DNA of 64,000 nucleotides from a phage, in sequence record PQ724393.1. One strand, given 5' to 3'. The translations under genes and the position numbers were made by a program. How positions within the stretch are numbered: position 1 is the stretch's first letter; every line of letters begins with the position of its first letter. Below the pieces are notes generated by a model. It was not told where the DNA came from. It made no database searches and saw nothing but the letters and a program-made list of their open reading frames with translations. This document shows positions 4,090 through 56,767 of this stretch, in pieces.

Positions 4090-5744
<1,655 letters not shown>

Positions 5745-30600: not shown

Positions 30601-32811
30601 TTAAGCCGCTTCCACGGCTTTCATGAATTTAACGATTTGAGCTACAGAAGCCTCGGTAATGGATGTTCCACGACGATACATGTAGTCCGAAACTAAATGG
30701 TAATCAGATTCAAACTGTACAGTCATTTTATCATTGTTACTTGAAGCATTATTGGTTAGCGTATTGAACGTCGTGTTACAGATTTTCTTGATAACGGAAA
30801 GCTTATCATCAGTGATATAACCATGGAAATTCATATAACGGAATATATCATAGAAATTACTCAGACGAGTATATGCTTCAGACACCGGCTTGTCACTGAA
30901 ATACTTAGTCATGAAACCAAGCTCAGGGAACTTAGCAATGATTTCAAGGTAATACCTTGCACGGGTATTACTACCAATGTAGTCATCAATATCTACCGCA
31001 TCCAATGCTTCGGCATAAGCTTCTAATGTAGCTTCCATCAGGCATTCACATTGGCCTAACTTTTTAATCTTTTTGGCAATCTGAGGGCGAATGATATGGA
31101 ATTCGGTAGCACCAATCAAATTAGCCATACGACACATGGTAGTGGTGTTGATGTCAAAGATACCATAAGCTTCATCCATTCCCATGATATCAGAACGACT
31201 ACCAAACAGAACATAACCGGTAATTTCTTCTGCTTCAGCTGCGGTCAAATACATGGTCTCTTGTTGCCAGCGCCCGTCTTTAATGAACCAACGATAAGCA
31301 CTTGGTGTTTTAGGACGCGGTTCTGATGAACGGACAGTAACCGGAATCCATGGCTTAACAATTTTATTCAGTTCAGAGACTTTATAAAAATGAATTGTGT
31401 CACCTTTAAAAAGTTCTTTAACCTTTTCAAGTTGTTGCATTTGCAACATTGAATTCGGGTCGACGAAAATAAGGTCGGTCCCGGATTTAGGAATATTGTT
31501 CTCTTTAACAATTTTCTTGGCCGAAGCACTGTTGTCCATTGCTAAGGCCCAAAGTCCTCGAACTAATGGCACACGGCCCTTTTCATCGTCATAAACAATA
31601 TGGATTTCTTTATTATTAATGCCTAATAGGCCACTAAGTCCTGCTACCGAAGAAGTATTACTACTCGGCTTAATTCGTCTCAAACGTGGGTCCATACAAA
31701 CTTCGTAAACAACACCCAAATTAATAAGGTCGTTTTGAAGTGTATAACGTTGGTATAATTTCTCATATGTCAATTTTTCTGTAGTAAACAGGCTAGTCCC
31801 ACCTTTTTTGGTAAGATAGTCACGAGCACTGTAACCAAGGTTAGAAAGGTCACGATAAACATGGCGTGGATTATCAGATTCAACCCATTCCTGTGTATCG
31901 TTTTTAAAGACCAATGCATCCAAGGCTTCGATACGAGTTGCAATATTTTCCATTGTGCGTTTATCAAGAGACAACACTTCACGAGATGGAGCAATATCCA
32001 GCGAGCCCATAGGGAACTTAATATAAACTACATCATGGCGAGTACGCATCCATGTGCCTTTAATATAAGCCGAATCCAATGGATAAACAATACCACCATA
32101 AACGGCATAAAGTCCTGAACGTTCAAAATCTCTGTAACCGGTATCAGTTACAGCATAGTAGTCTTCGAATTCAGGGAAATAATCAACTTCGGCCCCATCA
32201 ACATCACCGAGTCCAATGAACGGTCGCATGATATAACGAACTTCAGTTTCAAACTTACGGAAATCTTCTTCATCAACAGGAACCGTGATTTCTATACCGG
32301 TTTTGTCACCTGGATTCATAGGTTCAACGAAAGTAGGTTTAATCTGAGGTCCATCACCATCCATATAAGCTACATAACCGCGAACTTCACCATTATGCCA
32401 CGAGGTAATATTAAACGTTTCGGTATAACTGAACGGAGATTTTGAACCAAGGCCAAAGCCACCGATGAAATCGTTAGAAGCTGTTTTGGATGATGCGAAA
32501 TAAGAGTTATACAAACCTGTTTCGTTTTCATCACCACGAATTTGGAAATCACTCATGCCTGGCCCGAAGTCACGGCATACAAAACGAGGGTCCAGTTTAC
32601 CAGGAACCTGTACTTTCCAACGTTCTTTATTACCATTCAGAATATGAGCATCAATCATATTGGTAATTAGTTCACGAACTACAGCACGCACCTTATTACT
32701 ATAAAGGTCTGATGAAAGAATTTTAAAGACCTTAGGCGAGGCCTGGATAGTAAAGCCTGTGGACTTAGCGCCATTACCAATGATTTGTTCTTTTTCGGTT
32801 TCAATAATCAT
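30601..32811 (-). CDS. rIIA: rIIA protein (GHKL ATPase-like N-terminal domain)
   Basis: 736 aa, T4 rIIA-like size and N-terminal ATPase-like motifs (GFGLGSKS). Confidence 0.85.
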   Translation of the reverse strand: MIIETEKEQIIGNGAKSTGFTIQASPKVFKILSSDLYSNKVRAVVRELITNMIDAHILNGNKERWKVQVPGKLDPRFVCRDFGPGMSDFQIRGDENETGLYNSYFASSKTASNDFIGGFGLGSKSPFSYTETFNITSWHNGEVRGYVAYMDGDGPQIKPTFVEPMNPGDKTGIEITVPVDEEDFRKFETEVRYIMRPFIGLGDVDGAEVDYFPEFEDYYAVTDTGYRDFERSGLYAVYGGIVYPLDSAYIKGTWMRTRHDVVYIKFPMGSLDIAPSREVLSLDKRTMENIATRIEALDALVFKNDTQEWVESDNPRHVYRDLSNLGYSARDYLTKKGGTSLFTTEKLTYEKLYQRYTLQNDLINLGVVYEVCMDPRLRRIKPSSNTSSVAGLSGLLGINNKEIHIVYDDEKGRVPLVRGLWALAMDNSASAKKIVKENNIPKSGTDLIFVDPNSMLQMQQLEKVKELFKGDTIHFYKVSELNKIVKPWIPVTVRSSEPRPKTPSAYRWFIKDGRWQQETMYLTAAEAEEITGYVLFGSRSDIMGMDEAYGIFDINTTTMCRMANLIGATEFHIIRPQIAKKIKKLGQCECLMEATLEAYAEALDAVDIDDYIGSNTRARYYLEIIAKFPELGFMTKYFSDKPVSEAYTRLSNFYDIFRYMNFHGYITDDKLSVIKKICNTTFNTLTNNASSNNDKMTVQFESDYHLVSDYMYRRGTSITEASVAQIVKFMKAVEAA

Positions 32812-32818
32812 ATTTTTC

Positions 32819-33022
32819 TCAATTCAGGTTACGTTTAAAAAGGTCTGCTACTTCAAGGAGCTCGTCCTTAGTAGCGATGTCGTTGAGTATTTTATATCTG
32901 ATTTCTTTAAAGCGTTCTTTAAAATCCTCAGCTGCATTGATATCAAAAAATCGTTGGATTAACCGGAATTCTTTATGGACGGCTTTATCGAACAAATCAA
33001 TATTCACTTTAAAGTTTGTCAT
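32819..33022 (-). CDS. Hypothetical protein
   Basis: 67 aa ORF. Confidence 0.4.
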   Translation of the reverse strand: MTNFKVNIDLFDKAVHKEFRLIQRFFDINAAEDFKERFKEIRYKILNDIATKDELLEVADLFKRNLN

Positions 33023-33359
33023 TTTTAACTACCTCATGTTGAACATATTCTCTGGTAGAACCGAGTTCAGCCAGAATTCTTCTCATAGAACCCATTGTAC
33101 TTTTGTGCTCTCTGTGGCGATACAATATCTCCAGAACCTTTTCCTGGACAACAGGAGAGAGCGCCTGGTTATCTTTAATCTTTAAGGCAATAGATTTTAC
33201 AGCCTTAAGATATTCTAGCCCCTTACCGCTTGTAATCACTACTCCTTCATCTTTACAGTTACGAATAGCGGTTTCCATAAAGGATAAAGCCAGGTTGTCA
33301 GTGTTCACTATACTGTTATCTTGCATAATCATATTCTCACCTCTAGATAATCCTATCAC
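33009..33359 (-). CDS. Hypothetical protein
   Basis: 116 aa ORF. Confidence 0.4.
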   Translation of the reverse strand: MIGLSRGENMIMQDNSIVNTDNLALSFMETAIRNCKDEGVVITSGKGLEYLKAVKSIALKIKDNQALSPVVQEKVLEILYRHREHKSTMGSMRRILAELGSTREYVQHEVVKNDKL

Positions 33360-33383
33360 AGTTTTGTTATGTTGTAAACCCCG

Positions 33384-33401
33384 AAAAGGGCCTTGCGGCC
33401 C
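33384..33401 (-). terminator. Intrinsic terminator GGGCC-GCAA-GGCCC + U4
   Basis: GC stem, tetraloop and U run on the minus-strand transcript. Confidence 0.5.
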
Positions 33402-33405
33402 TTAA

Positions 33406-33558
33406 TTATTCAATTTTGTAGACTTGTCCTCGAACTTGATAAAATTCGCCTTCCCAGGTTTCTACCATAATGGTCACATACTCTGCGAACAAAGGTCTCT
33501 TCTCGGCCCAGAGATATCCAAATTCACCGGTGGCTAGCGTTATCCAGTACTTTCTCAT
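33406..33558 (-). CDS. Hypothetical small protein, 50 aa (track ORF trimmed)
   Basis: SD AGGAG before internal ATG just downstream of gene 39 stop. Confidence 0.35.
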   Translation of the reverse strand: MRKYWITLATGEFGYLWAEKRPLFAEYVTIMVETWEGEFYQVRGQVYKIE

Positions 33559-33601
33559 AAAGTCTCCTAATTGTATGGCACTCATGTACCATACATATTT
33601 A

Positions 33602-35419
33602 TTACGACATCCAGGCCTTACGGAGTTGAGGGTCGTTCCCGAGGAGCATTTCGAACTGTTCTTTCCAATCTTCAGGCAATTGAACCACATCAAATTTAGG
33701 GTCTTGAATCATTCGACGGTATTCAGCCTTCTCAAGAGAACCTAAACCTTTAATATATCGAATAGAATGTTTTGGTAGAGAGTCCTTGGCTTTGGTATAA
33801 CTAGGAACATCATAAAACCATTCCTGTTCTTTACCAATCTGAGCAATAATCACCGGAGTTTTACAGAATCGTACTCGGCCTTGTTCGAATAATTCAGGCC
33901 ATTGGCTAAAGAAGGCTAGCAATGACGGATAAATCGAGCCTGTACCATCCACATCGGCATCAGTCATAATAGCGATATTACGATAGTTAGTTTTATCTGC
34001 AGGTTCGCCAATAACCAGTCCAGTGATTGCACAGATATCAAACAATTCTTTGTTCTTCATGATATCAACTGCAGGCATACCCCAGGTATTCATAACCTTA
34101 CCACGCAATGGATAACCGCCTTGAAGGTCTTTATTACGTACTTCAATGAAAGGACCCATTGCTGAATCACCTTCAGTCAAGAACAGAGTTGTATCGGCAT
34201 CTTTACCATACATATTGGCTTTAATATGCTTATGGACCTTAGCTTTCAAAGCTTTCTTAGCGGCTTTTGTTTCTGCTGCTTTTTCGGCTGCTAATTTACG
34301 TGCTAAAGCAGCTTCGACGATAGGCATAATCAACCCATCGACCTTAAGAATCATCGATGCAATTTTCTTAGCATCAATTTGGATATGGCTACGAATCTCG
34401 CCAAACGGGGAGGTCAAACGCTCTTTAGTCTGGGAATCAAAACGCATATTACTCATATCACGAATGAACATTACCATCGTAAGGCATTCTTTAACACGAG
34501 CCTTAGTTACTTCAATTCCACGATATTTCTTTTTAATACCAGGCAGAAGGTGCTCACAAATGTCATCGAATACACATTCAACGTGGTGGCCACCATTCTT
34601 GGTATGGATATTATTTACATACGTCAGTTGACGGAACCCATCCGGAGAAGGAGTAAATGCCATCGAAACATTATCAGTTTCTTGGATTACAAAGTCATCA
34701 CCAAATTGCTTAGCATACTTTTTAAAGTTGCCATCTACTTTTTTACCATTAAAAGTAAATTGAATATCAGGATAAATTACGGCCAGTGTTTGAAGACGGT
34801 CTAATGTAATATCCAGATAAATTTGGGTCAGGCTATTTTCTTCGAAATGGTTAAAGTCTGGGGTGAATATAACCGAAGTACCCTTACCTTTAGATTTCTT
34901 AGTAGTCCAACCTTTGTTTTCCATTCCGTTAGAACAGTTAACAGTAATCTCATTCTCGCCATCAGAGGTGATGCCTGTGAACAAAACAGAGAAGATATTA
35001 GTTAAACTACTACCGACACCATTCATGCCACCTGTCTTACGCTCTGAGTCATCTCCAAAGTTACCACCGGCCTTTGGAATAGTCCATGCAGCTACAGGAC
35101 CCGGAATTTGTTCGCCATTTTGGTCAGTAACCATTGCTTGTGGAATACCACGGCCATTATCGGAAACTGAAACCTGATTATTCTTAATTCGGACATCAAT
35201 TTTGTTTGCGAATTTAAAATTAGTACGAATAGCTTCATCGACAGAGTTATCAATGATTTCGTCAATTAATTTAACCAGTCCAGGAACATAGTTCACCTGG
35301 GTAAAATTACCAAACAGGAATCGACCGTGAGCTTCATTAGCACTTGAGCCAATATACATCCCACTACGTTTTTTGATATGTTCAATGTCGGACAGTACTT
35401 TAATTTCATTCTTAATCAT
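33602..35419 (-). CDS. 39: DNA topoisomerase II large subunit gp39, full-length GyrB-like
   Basis: 605 aa single ORF with ATPase and TOPRIM motifs; not split as T4 39 + 60. Confidence 0.85.
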   Translation of the reverse strand: MIKNEIKVLSDIEHIKKRSGMYIGSSANEAHGRFLFGNFTQVNYVPGLVKLIDEIIDNSVDEAIRTNFKFANKIDVRIKNNQVSVSDNGRGIPQAMVTDQNGEQIPGPVAAWTIPKAGGNFGDDSERKTGGMNGVGSSLTNIFSVLFTGITSDGENEITVNCSNGMENKGWTTKKSKGKGTSVIFTPDFNHFEENSLTQIYLDITLDRLQTLAVIYPDIQFTFNGKKVDGNFKKYAKQFGDDFVIQETDNVSMAFTPSPDGFRQLTYVNNIHTKNGGHHVECVFDDICEHLLPGIKKKYRGIEVTKARVKECLTMVMFIRDMSNMRFDSQTKERLTSPFGEIRSHIQIDAKKIASMILKVDGLIMPIVEAALARKLAAEKAAETKAAKKALKAKVHKHIKANMYGKDADTTLFLTEGDSAMGPFIEVRNKDLQGGYPLRGKVMNTWGMPAVDIMKNKELFDICAITGLVIGEPADKTNYRNIAIMTDADVDGTGSIYPSLLAFFSQWPELFEQGRVRFCKTPVIIAQIGKEQEWFYDVPSYTKAKDSLPKHSIRYIKGLGSLEKAEYRRMIQDPKFDVVQLPEDWKEQFEMLLGNDPQLRKAWMS

Positions 35420-52485: not shown

Positions 52486-52562
52486 TATATTTTTCCATAG
52501 GCATCATTATATTTTACTCACGTTTTAAGATAGGGTAATTATATCACTTCACATTTACAGCG

Positions 52563-53456
52563 TTAAAGGACCACGTCCTCATAACTTGGCATTTCGTGCC
52601 CAGAATGGATATGGGCACCGAAATAAATGAATTCAGCCAGACCAGGATGGAATACTAAACCTGGGTTCTCATGATAAATGATATGCGGTCTTGATTTCAG
52701 AATCTGATAATACTCAACCTTACTCGGTTTGAATTTAACAATCTCTACATCAGGACGATAGTCTTCACGCTTAAATGAATCATTAGGGTTGGTGATATAA
52801 AGACGAGCACCTTCAGCCGCAGCTTGGTCTACAACTCTTTCGAATTGATAGCACTTATCCGAAATACGGAATGGATGGAAAATACCATCAATTTTAATAG
52901 GCGCTAGACCTTCAGAGTAACGCTCAATTACTGCAGGATTAATTACCTTTTGGTCTACAAAAATCTTATCAGAGGATGCACCTCGTGACACCAGGACGTC
53001 TTTCTGGCATTGATTCAGGACTGTAGTATAAAGTGAACGTTCAACTGAAGCCACATCAATATCAATGAACTCGTCGATATAATAACGAGGAACTTCAGGG
53101 TCCATTGTGATATTAAAGTTGAATTGTACAGTATGAGCACCATCATAACCTGTGATATCGGTTACCAGTCCTGAGCAATCATAGTATTCGATTAGTGAAT
53201 CGACTACAAACTCATTTTCAGACCAGAAATGTTTACGGGTTTCATAAGCATTTTCTTTATACCAAAGTGGTACGAAATTCAGTTCTGGGAATAATTCAAT
53301 GCATTCTTTGATATCGCTCGAATTTCTAGGATAAGCCAGATAATCACCTGGACGAGCACGATTTAAATGGAGTTGAAAATTGCCGTCCTTAAGGACGGCA
53401 TATTCACCTGTTTCGTAACTACGCATACTGAAAATAGGAACGATAAACAAACTCAT
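52563..53456 (-). CDS. Unrecognised protein in the T4 beta-glucosyltransferase position; candidate DNA glycosyltransferase
   Basis: 297 aa, ATGA-coupled to gene 42; no resemblance to T4 Bgt that I can recognise; possible DxD-like FIDIDV. Confidence 0.35.
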   Translation of the reverse strand: MSLFIVPIFSMRSYETGEYAVLKDGNFQLHLNRARPGDYLAYPRNSSDIKECIELFPELNFVPLWYKENAYETRKHFWSENEFVVDSLIEYYDCSGLVTDITGYDGAHTVQFNFNITMDPEVPRYYIDEFIDIDVASVERSLYTTVLNQCQKDVLVSRGASSDKIFVDQKVINPAVIERYSEGLAPIKIDGIFHPFRISDKCYQFERVVDQAAAEGARLYITNPNDSFKREDYRPDVEIVKFKPSKVEYYQILKSRPHIIYHENPGLVFHPGLAEFIYFGAHIHSGHEMPSYEDVVL

Positions 53457-54151
53457 TTCAGGAAACCTCGGACGTAGTCAAAATCACGTTCAAACACGTG
53501 TGCACTTACCATGGTGTGGGAATACGTACCTAAACCAACACCACACTGTTCAGCAATAAATGCCATCAGTTTACCCTGCAGATAGAAATCCAGCTGCATA
53601 ACAACAGCGCAGTTTTGTGAACGCATATGGGTGTGTGCATACAAACGCCCGTCACGAATATAATACGTTACCGAATCGGTGCAAGGGTATTCTAAGGATT
53701 CGTCAGAATCAAGGAGGGCTTGGTCTTGTTCTTGGAGAATCTGGAACACAACTCTTCGCGAGTTGGCCTTTTCTTTAAGCTCTTTAAGTAGGGCTGGGAG
53801 TTGGGCCGCAATTCGAGGTCCATAGAAAGTGTTGAAGTTTGCAGGCAATACGTCACTTTTCGGCTTATCAATGAACTTAGCAACATTAGGGTATTCCTTA
53901 AATGCTTCGGCAGCGTCAGTACCACCAGAAATCATAAATTTCCAAAAGGATTCGGCATATTCATAACTGATACGATTGATACGTGGGTCGGTGAATTTAT
54001 AGGTGCTGACATCCAGTACTTCTATAGAAGCAGAACCAATTTCATAACAACGTCCGATACGAGAATCAACTGCAAACTGTGGAGCTTCCAGGATTTCTTC
54101 GTTCATTTGTTTAAATGCATTTTCAAAACTAACAGCGGTAATGTGTTTCAT
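53453..54151 (-). CDS. 42: dCMP hydroxymethylase gp42 (thymidylate-synthase fold)
   Basis: 232 aa; SRRVVFQI and CTDSVTYYIRDGRLYAHTHMRSQN regions align with T4 gp42 motifs. Confidence 0.7.
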   Translation of the reverse strand: MKHITAVSFENAFKQMNEEILEAPQFAVDSRIGRCYEIGSASIEVLDVSTYKFTDPRINRISYEYAESFWKFMISGGTDAAEAFKEYPNVAKFIDKPKSDVLPANFNTFYGPRIAAQLPALLKELKEKANSRRVVFQILQEQDQALLDSDESLEYPCTDSVTYYIRDGRLYAHTHMRSQNCAVVMQLDFYLQGKLMAFIAEQCGVGLGTYSHTMVSAHVFERDFDYVRGFLK

Positions 54152-54684
54152 TTATTCACCTTATTTTCAATATATTCGTTCAGACGTTTTAATTCTACCA
54201 TATCAACATTAAGCAAATTATTATGGCCGTCATGATTTAAGATTTTAAACACGTTTTCAAAACATGTTTCGTATTGCTGGATAGTTAGGTTGAACTCATC
54301 TTTGGTTAATTTAATAAGGTCATCTTCGAAGTCTTCGTCTAATGGGTTGCGAGTTAAAATAACTTCGATAACGTTAAATTCAGATTTAAACCCTTTCCAA
54401 TCTTCCAGTTCTACATAAGGGTCCATTTCACCACGAAGGAATCCCGAGTAAACAATATTACTAGGATACCCACGGTCTAAGATGTAGACAAAATTAGGGT
54501 CTAAAAACTTATACAGAGTTTCAACTAAAGCCTTGTCATTATCAGTCCCTAATGAAATGCATTTGCCATTAATCTTTTTAGGGAAATCAATAAGACGATA
54601 TTTCTTATCAGATAAAAGTGATTCAATTAAAGTAGACTTCCCGGAATTATCCGGGCCGTCGATAACAATGATTTTTGGTTTCAC
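54148..54684 (-). CDS. Thymidylate-kinase-like P-loop kinase
   Basis: Walker A IIVIDGPDNSGKST; TMPK-like DRG...SNIVYSG region; ATGA-coupled both sides. Confidence 0.6.
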   Translation of the reverse strand: MKPKIIVIDGPDNSGKSTLIESLLSDKKYRLIDFPKKINGKCISLGTDNDKALVETLYKFLDPNFVYILDRGYPSNIVYSGFLRGEMDPYVELEDWKGFKSEFNVIEVILTRNPLDEDFEDDLIKLTKDEFNLTIQQYETCFENVFKILNHDGHNNLLNVDMVELKRLNEYIENKVNK

Positions 54685-55079
54685 GGATGATATGCCTTAT
54701 AACTATCAAGAGTTCCTTCACGAACCAATTCTTTAAAGTGGTCTGGACGGATTGCTCGGTCATCGATGATAAAAGTATAACTCGGCTTGTGTGTAAGCAA
54801 ATTGTGATATTTCAATCCAATTTTTTCAAGGTTCTTAACCAATGCAGGAACTACTTCAACCAAGATTCGACCTGGGCCACATGAAGTCATGCCACGGGCA
54901 GTGAATAATGTAATCTCGTACCCTTCATCATAAAGCTTATTAATCATGGACACCATTTCGGTGTCCGGTTTAAAGTTCTCATAATCACGGTCATGGTTCC
55001 AAATCGTGATTGTGTTATCGATATCAAAACATAAATGTGGCTTATTTTCTACTCGATGCGACATTAAATTTTCTTCCAT
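54681..55079 (-). CDS. Small HAD-superfamily phosphatase
   Basis: HAD motif I FDIDNTIT, motif II LFTAR, Lys in THKP, motif IV FIIDD. Confidence 0.6.
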   Translation of the reverse strand: MEENLMSHRVENKPHLCFDIDNTITIWNHDRDYENFKPDTEMVSMINKLYDEGYEITLFTARGMTSCGPGRILVEVVPALVKNLEKIGLKYHNLLTHKPSYTFIIDDRAIRPDHFKELVREGTLDSYKAYHP

Positions 55080-56767
55080 TGTTTGTGGAGTTCAGTAGAA
55101 CCTGTAGGTTTATATTTTACACCAGTTTCCTGGTCAAGCAAAACCCACTTATCAGGACAACGAGTAATAATTTGAGCCGTGATAGGGTCACGAACTTCAT
55201 CGACAAATTCACCAGTAATAAGCTTACGCTTACGAGGATGCCGCTTCAGCAGCACACTCAGTTGGTACAAACCGTTATAATAAGCACCCAGAGCTTTCAG
55301 AGGGTTATTCTTAAAGTAACCTGCCAGAGCCATCCAAATAACAGCAATCCAGAGCTTGTGCTTAAATGTGCACATAGGAATATCGTCTAAAGGCATAACC
55401 TTTTCAATATCAACGAATACACGAGTTCCATTACGAGTTAATCCACCCCATAGAGGGTCTGAGTTAAATTTGTCATAGCCATCGATAGAATAAAGCACCT
55501 TAGCTTCATCATAAATCGCAGGGCCTTTAGAACTATTACCGAAATAACCACGTGGGTCGATGATTTTAATATCACCTTCGTCCGACAGCATAATATTACT
55601 GTAGTGCGGGTCGCCATGAATAAGTTGGTACGGCTCTTTATGTTCAGACAGAATTTCTAGTGCGTGGCGGAGAAGTTTTTCAGGGTCGCCTACTTTGAAA
55701 TCGTTAACATGGGTAATGCCTTGTGGAGCAAAGCCTTCAATCAATCCAGCAATAGAAGCATTACGAATAAGGACCTTGTCCAATACTTCTTTCTTAACAT
55801 CAGAATACCATTGCTCATCGGACGGATTATCGATAGTTCCACCAAATGAACGTAATGCACTAATGACCTTATAAACCATGAGGACTTTAGTTTCTTTAGA
55901 CATAAACCGGTAGGCATCTGCCATGGTGCGACCAAAGATACGTTCCATTTTAATGAATTCGCCTGGAGCAAAGTCTACAATGCTCGGAACAAATTCAGAA
56001 TCAATAGAATTATACCAATTGATTTCTTTAGATTGGATTTCTTTACCTAATTCGTTGGTAGGTACTTTAATAGCCAGATTCTCAGTGAACTCTAATTTAT
56101 TAAATTCACGGTTAATTTCAGAATCTTCATGGGCCCTAGCCAGTTTCAATTTGTCACCGACATCAACCACAAAGTCCAGCTTACGTTCAGTCAAATGGAC
56201 CATCGAATCCAGGTTGTCTGCAAGGTCTTCGCCATAATTAGAACGGTCGAAACCTGTCCAATTAGCCACCTGATACAAACCAACCACACCACCGCCAGTA
56301 CCAATTTCACGCAAGTACGGTTCTTCAAATGTAAAACGACAGTCGGTCCCATAGGTATAACAGTAGTCGTTATCCCACTCAACTTTATGACCTTCAGGAA
56401 TAATATCACACCAGTTAAACAAGACATTATGCCCGATGATATCTTCGGCAATGCAATCGATAGCATGAGCTGAACCGTTGGCCACATCTACGTTACGAAT
56501 AGTGAATTTAGGCTTATCACTGGTAATCATGTTAATGGATTTAATGTAACCCTTAACGAGGTCATTAAATTTGCTGTGAATAACCAGAATAATTTCATCT
56601 GATTGGTTACTATACAAATCATACAAATGTTTTAGTACTGTATGCTGTTTGTAGTTAACCAATACCTTCGGGATTTCGTTAGTAATTGGATACAACCGTG
56701 AGCCAAGACCCGCGCCTAAAATAACAACCTTTTTCATTATCTGTTCCTCAAGTGAATGTAGGTACAT
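55064..56767 (-). CDS. Bifunctional sugar-1-phosphate nucleotidyltransferase / APH-like sugar kinase (start may be at the internal MKKVV)
   Basis: N-terminal RmlA-like ILGAGLGSRLYPITNEIPK; C-terminal kinase Brenner-type motif LIHGDPHYSNIM and IIDPRG. Confidence 0.65.
   Translation of the reverse strand: MYLHSLEEQIMKKVVILGAGLGSRLYPITNEIPKVLVNYKQHTVLKHLYDLYSNQSDEIILVIHSKFNDLVKGYIKSINMITSDKPKFTIRNVDVANGSAHAIDCIAEDIIGHNVLFNWCDIIPEGHKVEWDNDYCYTYGTDCRFTFEEPYLREIGTGGGVVGLYQVANWTGFDRSNYGEDLADNLDSMVHLTERKLDFVVDVGDKLKLARAHEDSEINREFNKLEFTENLAIKVPTNELGKEIQSKEINWYNSIDSEFVPSIVDFAPGEFIKMERIFGRTMADAYRFMSKETKVLMVYKVISALRSFGGTIDNPSDEQWYSDVKKEVLDKVLIRNASIAGLIEGFAPQGITHVNDFKVGDPEKLLRHALEILSEHKEPYQLIHGDPHYSNIMLSDEGDIKIIDPRGYFGNSSKGPAIYDEAKVLYSIDGYDKFNSDPLWGGLTRNGTRVFVDIEKVMPLDDIPMCTFKHKLWIAVIWMALAGYFKNNPLKALGAYYNGLYQLSVLLKRHPRKRKLITGEFVDEVRDPITAQIITRCPDKWVLLDQETGVKYKPTGSTELHKQWKKI

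Follow-up and report, generated by a model that had tools for sequence, protein, structure and literature searches.

The 64,000-nucleotide (nt) stretch of phage DNA studied here (sequence record PQ724393.1; hereafter the window) contains a chain of five overlapping genes between the DNA polymerase gene and uvsX. One of them is an open reading frame (ORF) of 297 amino acids (aa). We consider it likely that this ORF encodes a UDP-pentofuranose-dependent GT-B glycosyltransferase, probably a retaining one, which forms the base-proximal bond on 5-hydroxycytosine (5hoC); in Dhakavirus, the genus concerned, the result would be a mono-glycosylated base. The ORF and its junction with the preceding thymidylate synthase (TS) homologue are located as follows.

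52563..53456, minus strand: compact GT-B glycosyltransferase of 297 aa, predicted from orthology (PHROG 3891) to be the first, base-proximal pentosyl (arabinofuranosyl) transferase on 5-hydroxycytosine
53453..53456, minus strand: ATGA overlap of the TS homologue stop and the transferase start (tcat on the plus strand; from the ORF coordinates)

The arabinosyltransferase assignment is already published for the orthogroup, which was predicted as 'arabinosyltransferase 1' by Lee et al. (NAR 2026, PMC13326640); the same inference is made in PMC13390438. The present analysis adds fusions of family members to other enzyme domains, the acidic character of the family, a D223N substitution in this copy and a conflict with an assay that points to a UDP-xylose pyrophosphorylase. 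An earlier sequence-only reading had called the gene an orphan, which it is not: it matches phrog_3891 at E 9e-158 over residues 1-296, and of the 50,697 phage records searched by tblastn 353 have a homologue, in 349 cases over the full length. Identity is 70% to RB69 ORF047c (gp47) and 62% to ORF046c (gp46), 66-67% to the copies of Mosigvirus JS09 and HY126, 51% to Thanatos TH1_063 and 49% to that of the Acinetobacter phage DLP2, with further tblastn homologues in phages of Klebsiella, Yersinia and Serratia. The JS98 RefSeq record already labels its copy 'RB69 orf047c-like'. As judged from these alignments, the 297-aa ORF is the Dhakavirus (JS98-like) orthologue of RB69 gp47 plus gp46, DLP3 gp79 and Thanatos TH1_063.

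The family is small. An exhaustive HMMER search through 1.84 billion cluster representatives returned only 241 members (clustered at 50% identity), a collection of 5.8 billion proteins contains 92 clusters at 90% identity, and every member whose genome surroundings were examined lies in phage DNA. As a side observation, RB69 ORF046c and ORF047c (L001 2598..3498) are one frameshifted gene: frame 0 ends in ...MQRLVV* and frame 1 continues with ...DLAPIHLDGIFHPFRISD. This accords with the sequencing error proposed in PMC13326640, although RefSeq still lists two hypothetical proteins.

The gene itself is real and constrained, since pN/pS against six other Dhakavirus copies is 0.04-0.17, indicating purifying selection. 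At the DNA level it is 98.5% identical to the Dhakavirus phages CLB_P2 and dhaeg and 97.9% to JS98. The start codon is correct, since the N-terminus (MSLFIVPI) agrees with the family consensus MxxLIVPI. Direct reading of the sequence confirms the ATGA overlap that had been described, which suggests that the TS homologue and the transferase are translationally coupled. The gene order of T4 is 43-imm.1-imm-42-b-gt-segA-uvsX; because the position relative to the TS homologue and uvsX matches, the ORF occupies the b-gt slot, just as the sequence-only reading had placed it. A diverged Bgt was considered and rejected: when the profile of 59 family sequences is aligned to T4 b-gt with hhalign, the probability is 0.1%, so that the remark that nothing T4 Bgt-like is visible in the ORF was right.

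The fold is clear. The AlphaFold2 model of the ORF, made with the 59-sequence alignment, has a predicted local distance difference test score (pLDDT) of 95.7 and a predicted template modelling score (pTM) of 0.90, and consists of two Rossmann-like alpha/beta domains with a cleft between them, the architecture that defines GT-B. All top 50 Foldseek matches in the PDB share this fold (MshA, HepE, BshA, sucrose-phosphate synthase and UDP-GlcNAc 2-epimerases), and in BFVD members of the family itself come first, followed by generic group-1 glycosyltransferases. The fold-search lists for the ORF contain neither nucleotidyltransferases nor GT-A structures. The choice between GT-A and GT-B, which had been left to structure prediction, is thereby answered with a confident GT-B glycosyltransferase model. 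None of the non-transferase folds on which the transferase idea would founder was matched with confidence, though UDP-GlcNAc 2-epimerases, which are not transferases, are among the top Foldseek hits.

The DxD metal-binding motif is a hallmark of GT-A enzymes and is not used by the GT-B fold. A DxD-like string had been pointed out as the only hint of a transferase, and the string itself is present:

53052..53069, minus strand: FIDIDV, residues 130-135, the putative DxD; not a conserved DxD

Within the family, however, residue 132 is Asp in 15 of 59 sequences and Glu in 21; D128 is kept in 57 and D134 in 56 of the 59. With D132 unconserved and the fold being GT-B, the GT-A/DxD idea was rejected. 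The invariant residues lie elsewhere. In the N-terminal domain they fall in the stretch that leads from the first strand through a loop into the beginning of the first helix (M11-R12 and D24-G25-N26, with S13 near-invariant), and R74, D100, N113 and N115 are also highly conserved. The C-terminal domain has F193, P195-F196-R197, D200, Y203, T222-D-P-N225, K246 and H270-P-G, as well as two conserved acidic residues (E263 and E275) spaced 11 residues apart with the invariant H270 between them (59 sequences). In the model this layout fits a C-terminal domain that would bind the donor and an acceptor site under strong constraint.

The likely acceptor can be read from the genes next to the ORF, which are given below.

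53453..54151, minus strand: TS homologue of 232 aa, 5-hydroxy-dCMP synthase type (Pfam Thymidylat_synt; 80% identity to RB69 gp48)
54148..54684, minus strand: P-loop nucleotide kinase of 178 aa, thymidylate-kinase-like (phrog_761, E 5.5e-40; 38-44% identity to RB69 gp45 and TH1_064)
54681..55079, minus strand: HAD phosphatase of 132 aa, homologue of RB69 gp51 and HY126 AfhF (62% identity to RB69 gp51)
55064..56767, minus strand: bifunctional protein of 567 aa, N-terminal sugar-1-phosphate nucleotidyltransferase and C-terminal APH-like kinase (Pfam NTP_transferase and APH; phrog_4098)

5-Hydroxy-dCMP is the product of RB69 gp48 and DLP3 gp80, both of which contain flavin (Lee et al., NAR 2026, PMC13326640). 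By nuclear magnetic resonance (NMR) the cytosines of RB69 are beta-D-Araf-(1,3)-alpha-D-Araf-5-hydroxy-dC (Araf, arabinofuranose), the sugar being bonded directly through the C5 oxygen (PMC13326640). The same is stated for Mosigvirus NP, and the earlier assignment as hydroxymethylcytosine (hmC) is called erroneous (PMC13390438). The 232-aa homologue in the window matches the HY126 structures 9iqu/9iqc at E 1e-125 and the T4 dCMP hydroxymethylase (1b49) only at E 2.8e-4, which means that the neighbour of the ORF is not gene 42, as had been stated, and that the hydroxymethylase through which T4 Bgt obtains its acceptor does not adjoin it. The Asn that is diagnostic in place of Asp169 may be the one in 'MRSQNC', although the BLAST alignment to E. 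coli ThyA is gapped by 2 residues there. Because the neighbour is orthologous to verified 5-hydroxy-dCMP synthases, the acceptor of the transferase is, by homology, almost certainly 5hoC rather than hmC. The proposal that the ORF transfers the sugar of the cassette onto hmC is consequently upheld for the transferase (GT-B fold, coupling, co-occurrence, and the only GT-fold candidate in the minimal Dhakavirus cassette) but not for the base.

Co-occurrence ties the transferase to the same pathway. Among the phage records the transferase family is found in 353, the TS of 5-hydroxy-dCMP synthase type in 346 and the AfhE-like sugar-activating enzyme in 342, against 212 for the second transferase similar to RB69 ORF003c. 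The genus breakdowns of the first three match almost exactly (177, 177 and 177 for Escherichia). Within the same collection, the ORF003c-like transferase is absent from Dhakavirus and from the phages of Klebsiella, Serratia, Yersinia and Proteus. Given these record counts and this absence, the family studied here would supply the transferase common to all versions of the module, and Dhakavirus would have no other.

Synteny shows a similar pattern. The transferase gene directly follows the TS gene in RB69, Thanatos, JS98 and the jumbo-phage contig L006; in contig L007 a gene of 200 aa intervenes. In the jumbo-phage contigs (356-383 kb) the transferase homologues are 38-40% identical to the ORF, with a TS homologue upstream and a kinase homologue directly downstream, and genes for an SIS isomerase, an APH kinase and flavodoxin-like proteins lie nearby. 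The last are Flavodoxin_2 genes similar to NAD(P)H:flavin reductases (L006 6426..6932 and L007 1..523), a few genes upstream of the TS/transferase/kinase cluster. They fit the flavin dependence reported for 5-hydroxy-dCMP synthases; the cassette of the window contains none.

In uncultured phages the transferase is also fused to other enzymes. In at least seven representatives a kinase domain with the motif EGFDRIGKD forms the C-terminal part, in one the kinase is N-terminal, and at least seven others have an N-terminal HAD phosphatase with DxDG and GDD motifs.

Kinase-fusion proteins: P0187, P0192, P0193, P0206, P0214, P0218, P0227, P0194
HAD-fusion proteins: P0108, P0123, P0130, P0152, P0155, P0132, P0195

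By hhalign the fused extensions match the kinase family of the window (97.1%, E 7e-11) and its HAD family (95%, E 4e-8). Small family profiles were needed for this, as phmmer with the window's own kinase and HAD proteins missed the fused domains. The contigs that encode the fusion proteins are 1.7-3.5 kb long and for the most part offer no genome context.

The most distant relatives show a different neighbourhood. Here the transferase, or a kinase-transferase fusion, adjoins a U32-peptidase-like gene with a faint Pfam hit (L008 9049..10125; L019 10179..11276; L020 2681..3778). A dCMP deaminase gene lies near the transferase in L019 and L020, with a dUTPase gene in L019 as well, and no TS homologue is in view in these most distant relatives. 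U32-family proteins are required for the formation of 5-hydroxycytidine (ho5C) and 5-hydroxyuridine (ho5U) in RNA, and RB69 gp50 is taken by us to share the Pfam family of the U32-like gene. This gene may represent an alternative route to a hydroxylated base.

From the fold, orthology, synteny, co-occurrence and fusions observed here, we infer the donor, the stereochemistry, the form of the acceptor and the activity itself, which together suggest a route of three steps. First, the ATGA-coupled TS homologue would hydroxylate dCMP to 5-hydroxy-dCMP, as shown for the 80% identical RB69 gp48. Second, the 567-aa kinase/nucleotidyltransferase and the HAD phosphatase would turn arabinose-5-phosphate into UDP-D-arabinofuranose, a conversion shown for AfhE/AfhF of HY126 (PMC13326640). 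Because the window contains no phage isomerase, arabinose-5-phosphate is presumably supplied by the host, which implies dependence on KdsD/GutQ. Third, the GT-B enzyme would bind the UDP-sugar in its C-terminal Rossmann domain and move the pentose onto the 5-OH of 5-hydroxycytosine, while the N-terminal domain, with its strong conservation (M11-R12-S13, D24-G25-N26, R74, D100, N113 and N115), would hold the acceptor. Transfer would probably proceed with retention and give the alpha-linkage reported for RB69. By analogy to T-even glucosylation, the acceptor is most likely 5hoC in replicated DNA. The second transferase (RB69 ORF003c) has no homologue in the 64-kb window or the first 50 kb of JS98, and the Dhakavirus records of the phage collection likewise yielded none; we therefore predict mono-glycosylated 5-hydroxycytosine as the product.

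Several observations weigh against a pentosyltransferase of this kind. In the literature covered, we found no demonstrated sugar transfer by any enzyme of the orthogroup, and no chemical analysis of any Dhakavirus DNA; Dhakaviruses are predicted by synteny only to carry the modification (PMC13326640). Thanatos TH1_063 did not transfer xylose to plasmid DNA (PMC12838424). The ORF has no Pfam hit at E<=0.1 and none in the NCBIfam or PADLOC scans, and the family profile gives no meaningful sequence match in the PDB. The GT4 signature (Pfam PF00534/PF13439 and the EX7E motif) is likewise missing from the ORF, which has no classical EX7E. The family is acidic (median isoelectric point, pI, 5.2; net charge about -10), the 297-aa protein having a pI of 5.03 and a charge of -15.6 against a pI of 9.05 for T4 beta-glucosyltransferase; as judged from composition, such acidity is not typical of enzymes that bind DNA. 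The AfhE homologue of Dhakavirus stands apart, being 42-44% identical to those of RB69 and Thanatos, which share 54% with each other; the other cassette parts are closer to RB69 (TS 80%, transferase 67%, HAD 62%). Its divergence could be a sign that the specificity for the sugar or the nucleotide differs in Dhakavirus. Finally, the window copy is altered at an otherwise invariant residue, D223, to which we return below.

Part of this evidence would fit a different timing, in which the first sugar is added before replication: the acceptor of the transferase would be 5-hydroxy-dCMP, or its di- or triphosphate form, the cassette kinase would phosphorylate the product and the polymerase would incorporate it. 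We regard this as rather unlikely, but it accounts for several facts. The TS homologue, the transferase and a kinase of the nucleoside monophosphate type lie next to one another, or almost so, in RB69, Thanatos, JS98 and the distant jumbo-phage contigs, and the transferase-kinase fusions, found in both orders in at least eight cluster representatives, favour an acceptor at the nucleotide level, as does the strongly acidic family. A nucleotide acceptor would also explain why DLP3 gp79 is inactive on 5hoC DNA; the data of those authors do not distinguish between mononucleotide and post-replicative arabinosylation (PMC13326640). In RB69 the ordinary dNMP kinase gp159 suffices for the entry of 5-hydroxy-dC into DNA (PMC13326640), which leaves the cassette kinase without an assigned job, and glycosylation of the nucleotide would give it one. 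On the other hand, DNA is the acceptor in vitro for the arabinoses that come later (PMC13326640, Fig. 5). The Thanatos xylose-transfer assay was also run with dCMP, dCTP and cytosine as acceptors (PMC12838424), but these lack the 5-OH anyway. Fusion and synteny indicate membership of a shared pathway rather than consecutive steps, and net charge is a weak predictor of DNA binding. To our knowledge all phage DNA glycosylations characterised so far are post-replicative, which also counts against this timing. If it were true, it would provide the first natural glycosylated dNTP that serves as a replication substrate.

Another reading is independent of the remaining ones and concerns this copy alone, through the following codon:

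52788..52790, minus strand: codon 223, AAC (Asn); private D223N in the T-D-P-N motif after the second strand of the C-terminal domain

Every one of the 58 other family representatives has Asp at position 223, as do all seven further Dhakavirus copies, where the codon is GAC or GAT. The substitution might impair the enzyme or alter its specificity, for instance as an escape from modification-dependent defence, and the DNA would then be under-glycosylated. In the model the second strand of the predicted donor-binding Rossmann domain ends at D223, a position that, we assume, makes the classical contact to the nucleotide ribose. We nonetheless think impairment or altered specificity unlikely, given an uninterrupted reading frame and strong purifying selection on the remainder of the gene. 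Moreover, the exchange of Asp for Asn is isosteric and may preserve hydrogen bonds, and it could equally be a sequencing error or a neutral polymorphism. A hypomorph, an escape from defence, a neutral change and an error in the record are thus all conceivable. A second substitution, E286G, is likewise private to this phage.

Two further readings, in which the ORF is no transferase at all, are unlikely. According to the first, it would be a UDP-pentose pyrophosphorylase (UTP + pentose-1-phosphate to UDP-pentose), with the transferase encoded elsewhere. TH1_063, to which the ORF is orthologous at 51% identity, is published as a UDP-xylose pyrophosphorylase from an in vitro assay: incubation of the protein with UTP, xylose-1-phosphate and pyrophosphatase gave a species whose m/z and tandem mass spectrometry (MS/MS) pattern were those of UDP-xylose, whereas plasmid DNA did not receive the sugar (PMC12838424). 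This is hard to square with the GT-B fold. A genuine nucleotidyltransferase domain is moreover encoded next door, and its HY126 orthologue AfhE is credited with that activity (PMC13326640). Pfam NTP_transferase, the family with the G-x-G-x-R-x-x-P loop, gives no hit for the ORF, whereas the 567-aa neighbour is hit at E 3e-8. Reverse glycosyl transfer, which we infer as one option, or a contaminant may lie behind the TH1_063 result. We hold the probability of a pyrophosphorylase to be very low, and the modelled GT-B fold favours the 'single ara-GT' assignment for Thanatos (PMC13326640) over the pyrophosphorylase described in PMC12838424. Lower still is that of a GT-B-fold non-transferase that remodels the donor, such as a UDP-sugar 2-epimerase or a hydrolase: arabinose and ribose are C2 epimers, and 2-epimerases are among the top fold matches.

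Further observations concern the remaining genes of the cassette. The 178-aa kinase gene overlaps that of the TS homologue by 4 nt. The 132-aa HAD protein matches an NCBIfam capsule-biosynthesis phosphatase at E 6e-15, which is under the curated cut-off of that family; its homologue AfhF of HY126 is an Araf-1,5-bisphosphate 5-phosphatase (PMC13326640). The 567-aa protein is a homologue of RB69 gp53:52, HY126 AfhE and Thanatos TH1_060, and would by analogy make the UDP-pentose donor, the role given to its homologue in PMC13326640. A promoter and terminator scan of the window yields counts no higher than in shuffled sequence, without a convincing terminator inside the gene chain; the operon structure therefore rests on gene overlaps only. 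One sigma-70-like match (52538..52566, minus strand; TTAACG, 17 nt, TG-TATAAT; 10/12) overlaps the stop of the ORF upstream of uvsX and suggests a promoter of its own for uvsX, although the total of such promoter-like sites is not above chance.

By tblastn the 64-kb window has no homologues of RB69 ORF003c, gp55 (arabinose-5-phosphate isomerase), gp50 (U32-like) or gp49. Its rIIA-39 junction lies at about 32811..33602, away from the cassette at 52563..56767, and in JS98 there is nothing between rIIA.1 and gene 39 and no a-gt. The Dhakavirus cassette is thus a minimal version of the module, with five overlapping genes, one transferase and no isomerase. A second TS-family ORF of 286 aa (4090..4950, minus strand) shows a weak tblastn match to RB69 gp48 (22% identity); presumably it is td, the regular thymidylate synthase, and distinct from the hydroxylase-type homologue of the cassette.

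Arabinosylated 5-hydroxycytosine shields T4-like phages from restriction enzymes, type I CRISPR-Cas and the glycosylase Brig1. The arabinosyl modification also determines which defence systems still see the phage, which is of relevance to the choice of therapeutic coliphages, many of which belong to Dhakavirus or Mosigvirus. Of all steps in the pathway, only the formation of the first base-sugar bond lacks biochemical proof, and the two published assays disagree. The minimal Dhakavirus cassette offers a clean system to address both the acceptor of the transferase and the role of the extra kinase. Annotations can be corrected as well: 'hypothetical protein' to 'putative 5-hydroxycytosine arabinosyltransferase', and 'dCMP hydroxymethylase / gene 42' to '5-hydroxy-dCMP synthase'.

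The known systems nearest to the ORF include the T4 beta-glucosyltransferase (GT63) and alpha-glucosyltransferase (GT72); to the former it has no sequence homology. To the bacterial retaining GT-B enzymes of GT4 type (sucrose-phosphate synthase 6kih, BshA 6n1x, PglA 8dqd, PimA 2gej and MshA 3c4q) it is 7-14% identical, and it differs from them in lacking Pfam Glycos_transf_1 and EX7E, in its smaller N-terminal domain and in its predicted nucleobase acceptor. The glycosyltransferase known as RB69 ORF003c, Bas46 'Aat' or HY126 PDB 9iqz belongs to another family (hhalign 0.4%). Its gene sits between rIIA and gene 39, it is the proposed transferase of the second arabinose, and it occurs in 212 of the approximately 350 phages that bear the module but not in Dhakavirus. 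The closest systems are those of the orthologues. In RB69 (gp46:47) and DLP3 (gp79) the kinase gene lies downstream of the transferase, whereas in the window it lies upstream of the TS gene; the window cassette is also without the isomerase gp55, the U32-like gp50, gp49 and the second transferase gp3, and its transferase carries D223N. Thanatos TH1_063 is 51% identical over its full length, has the same TS-GT-kinase arrangement as the window and is the single GT-fold protein in a phage that is said to be mono-pentosylated.

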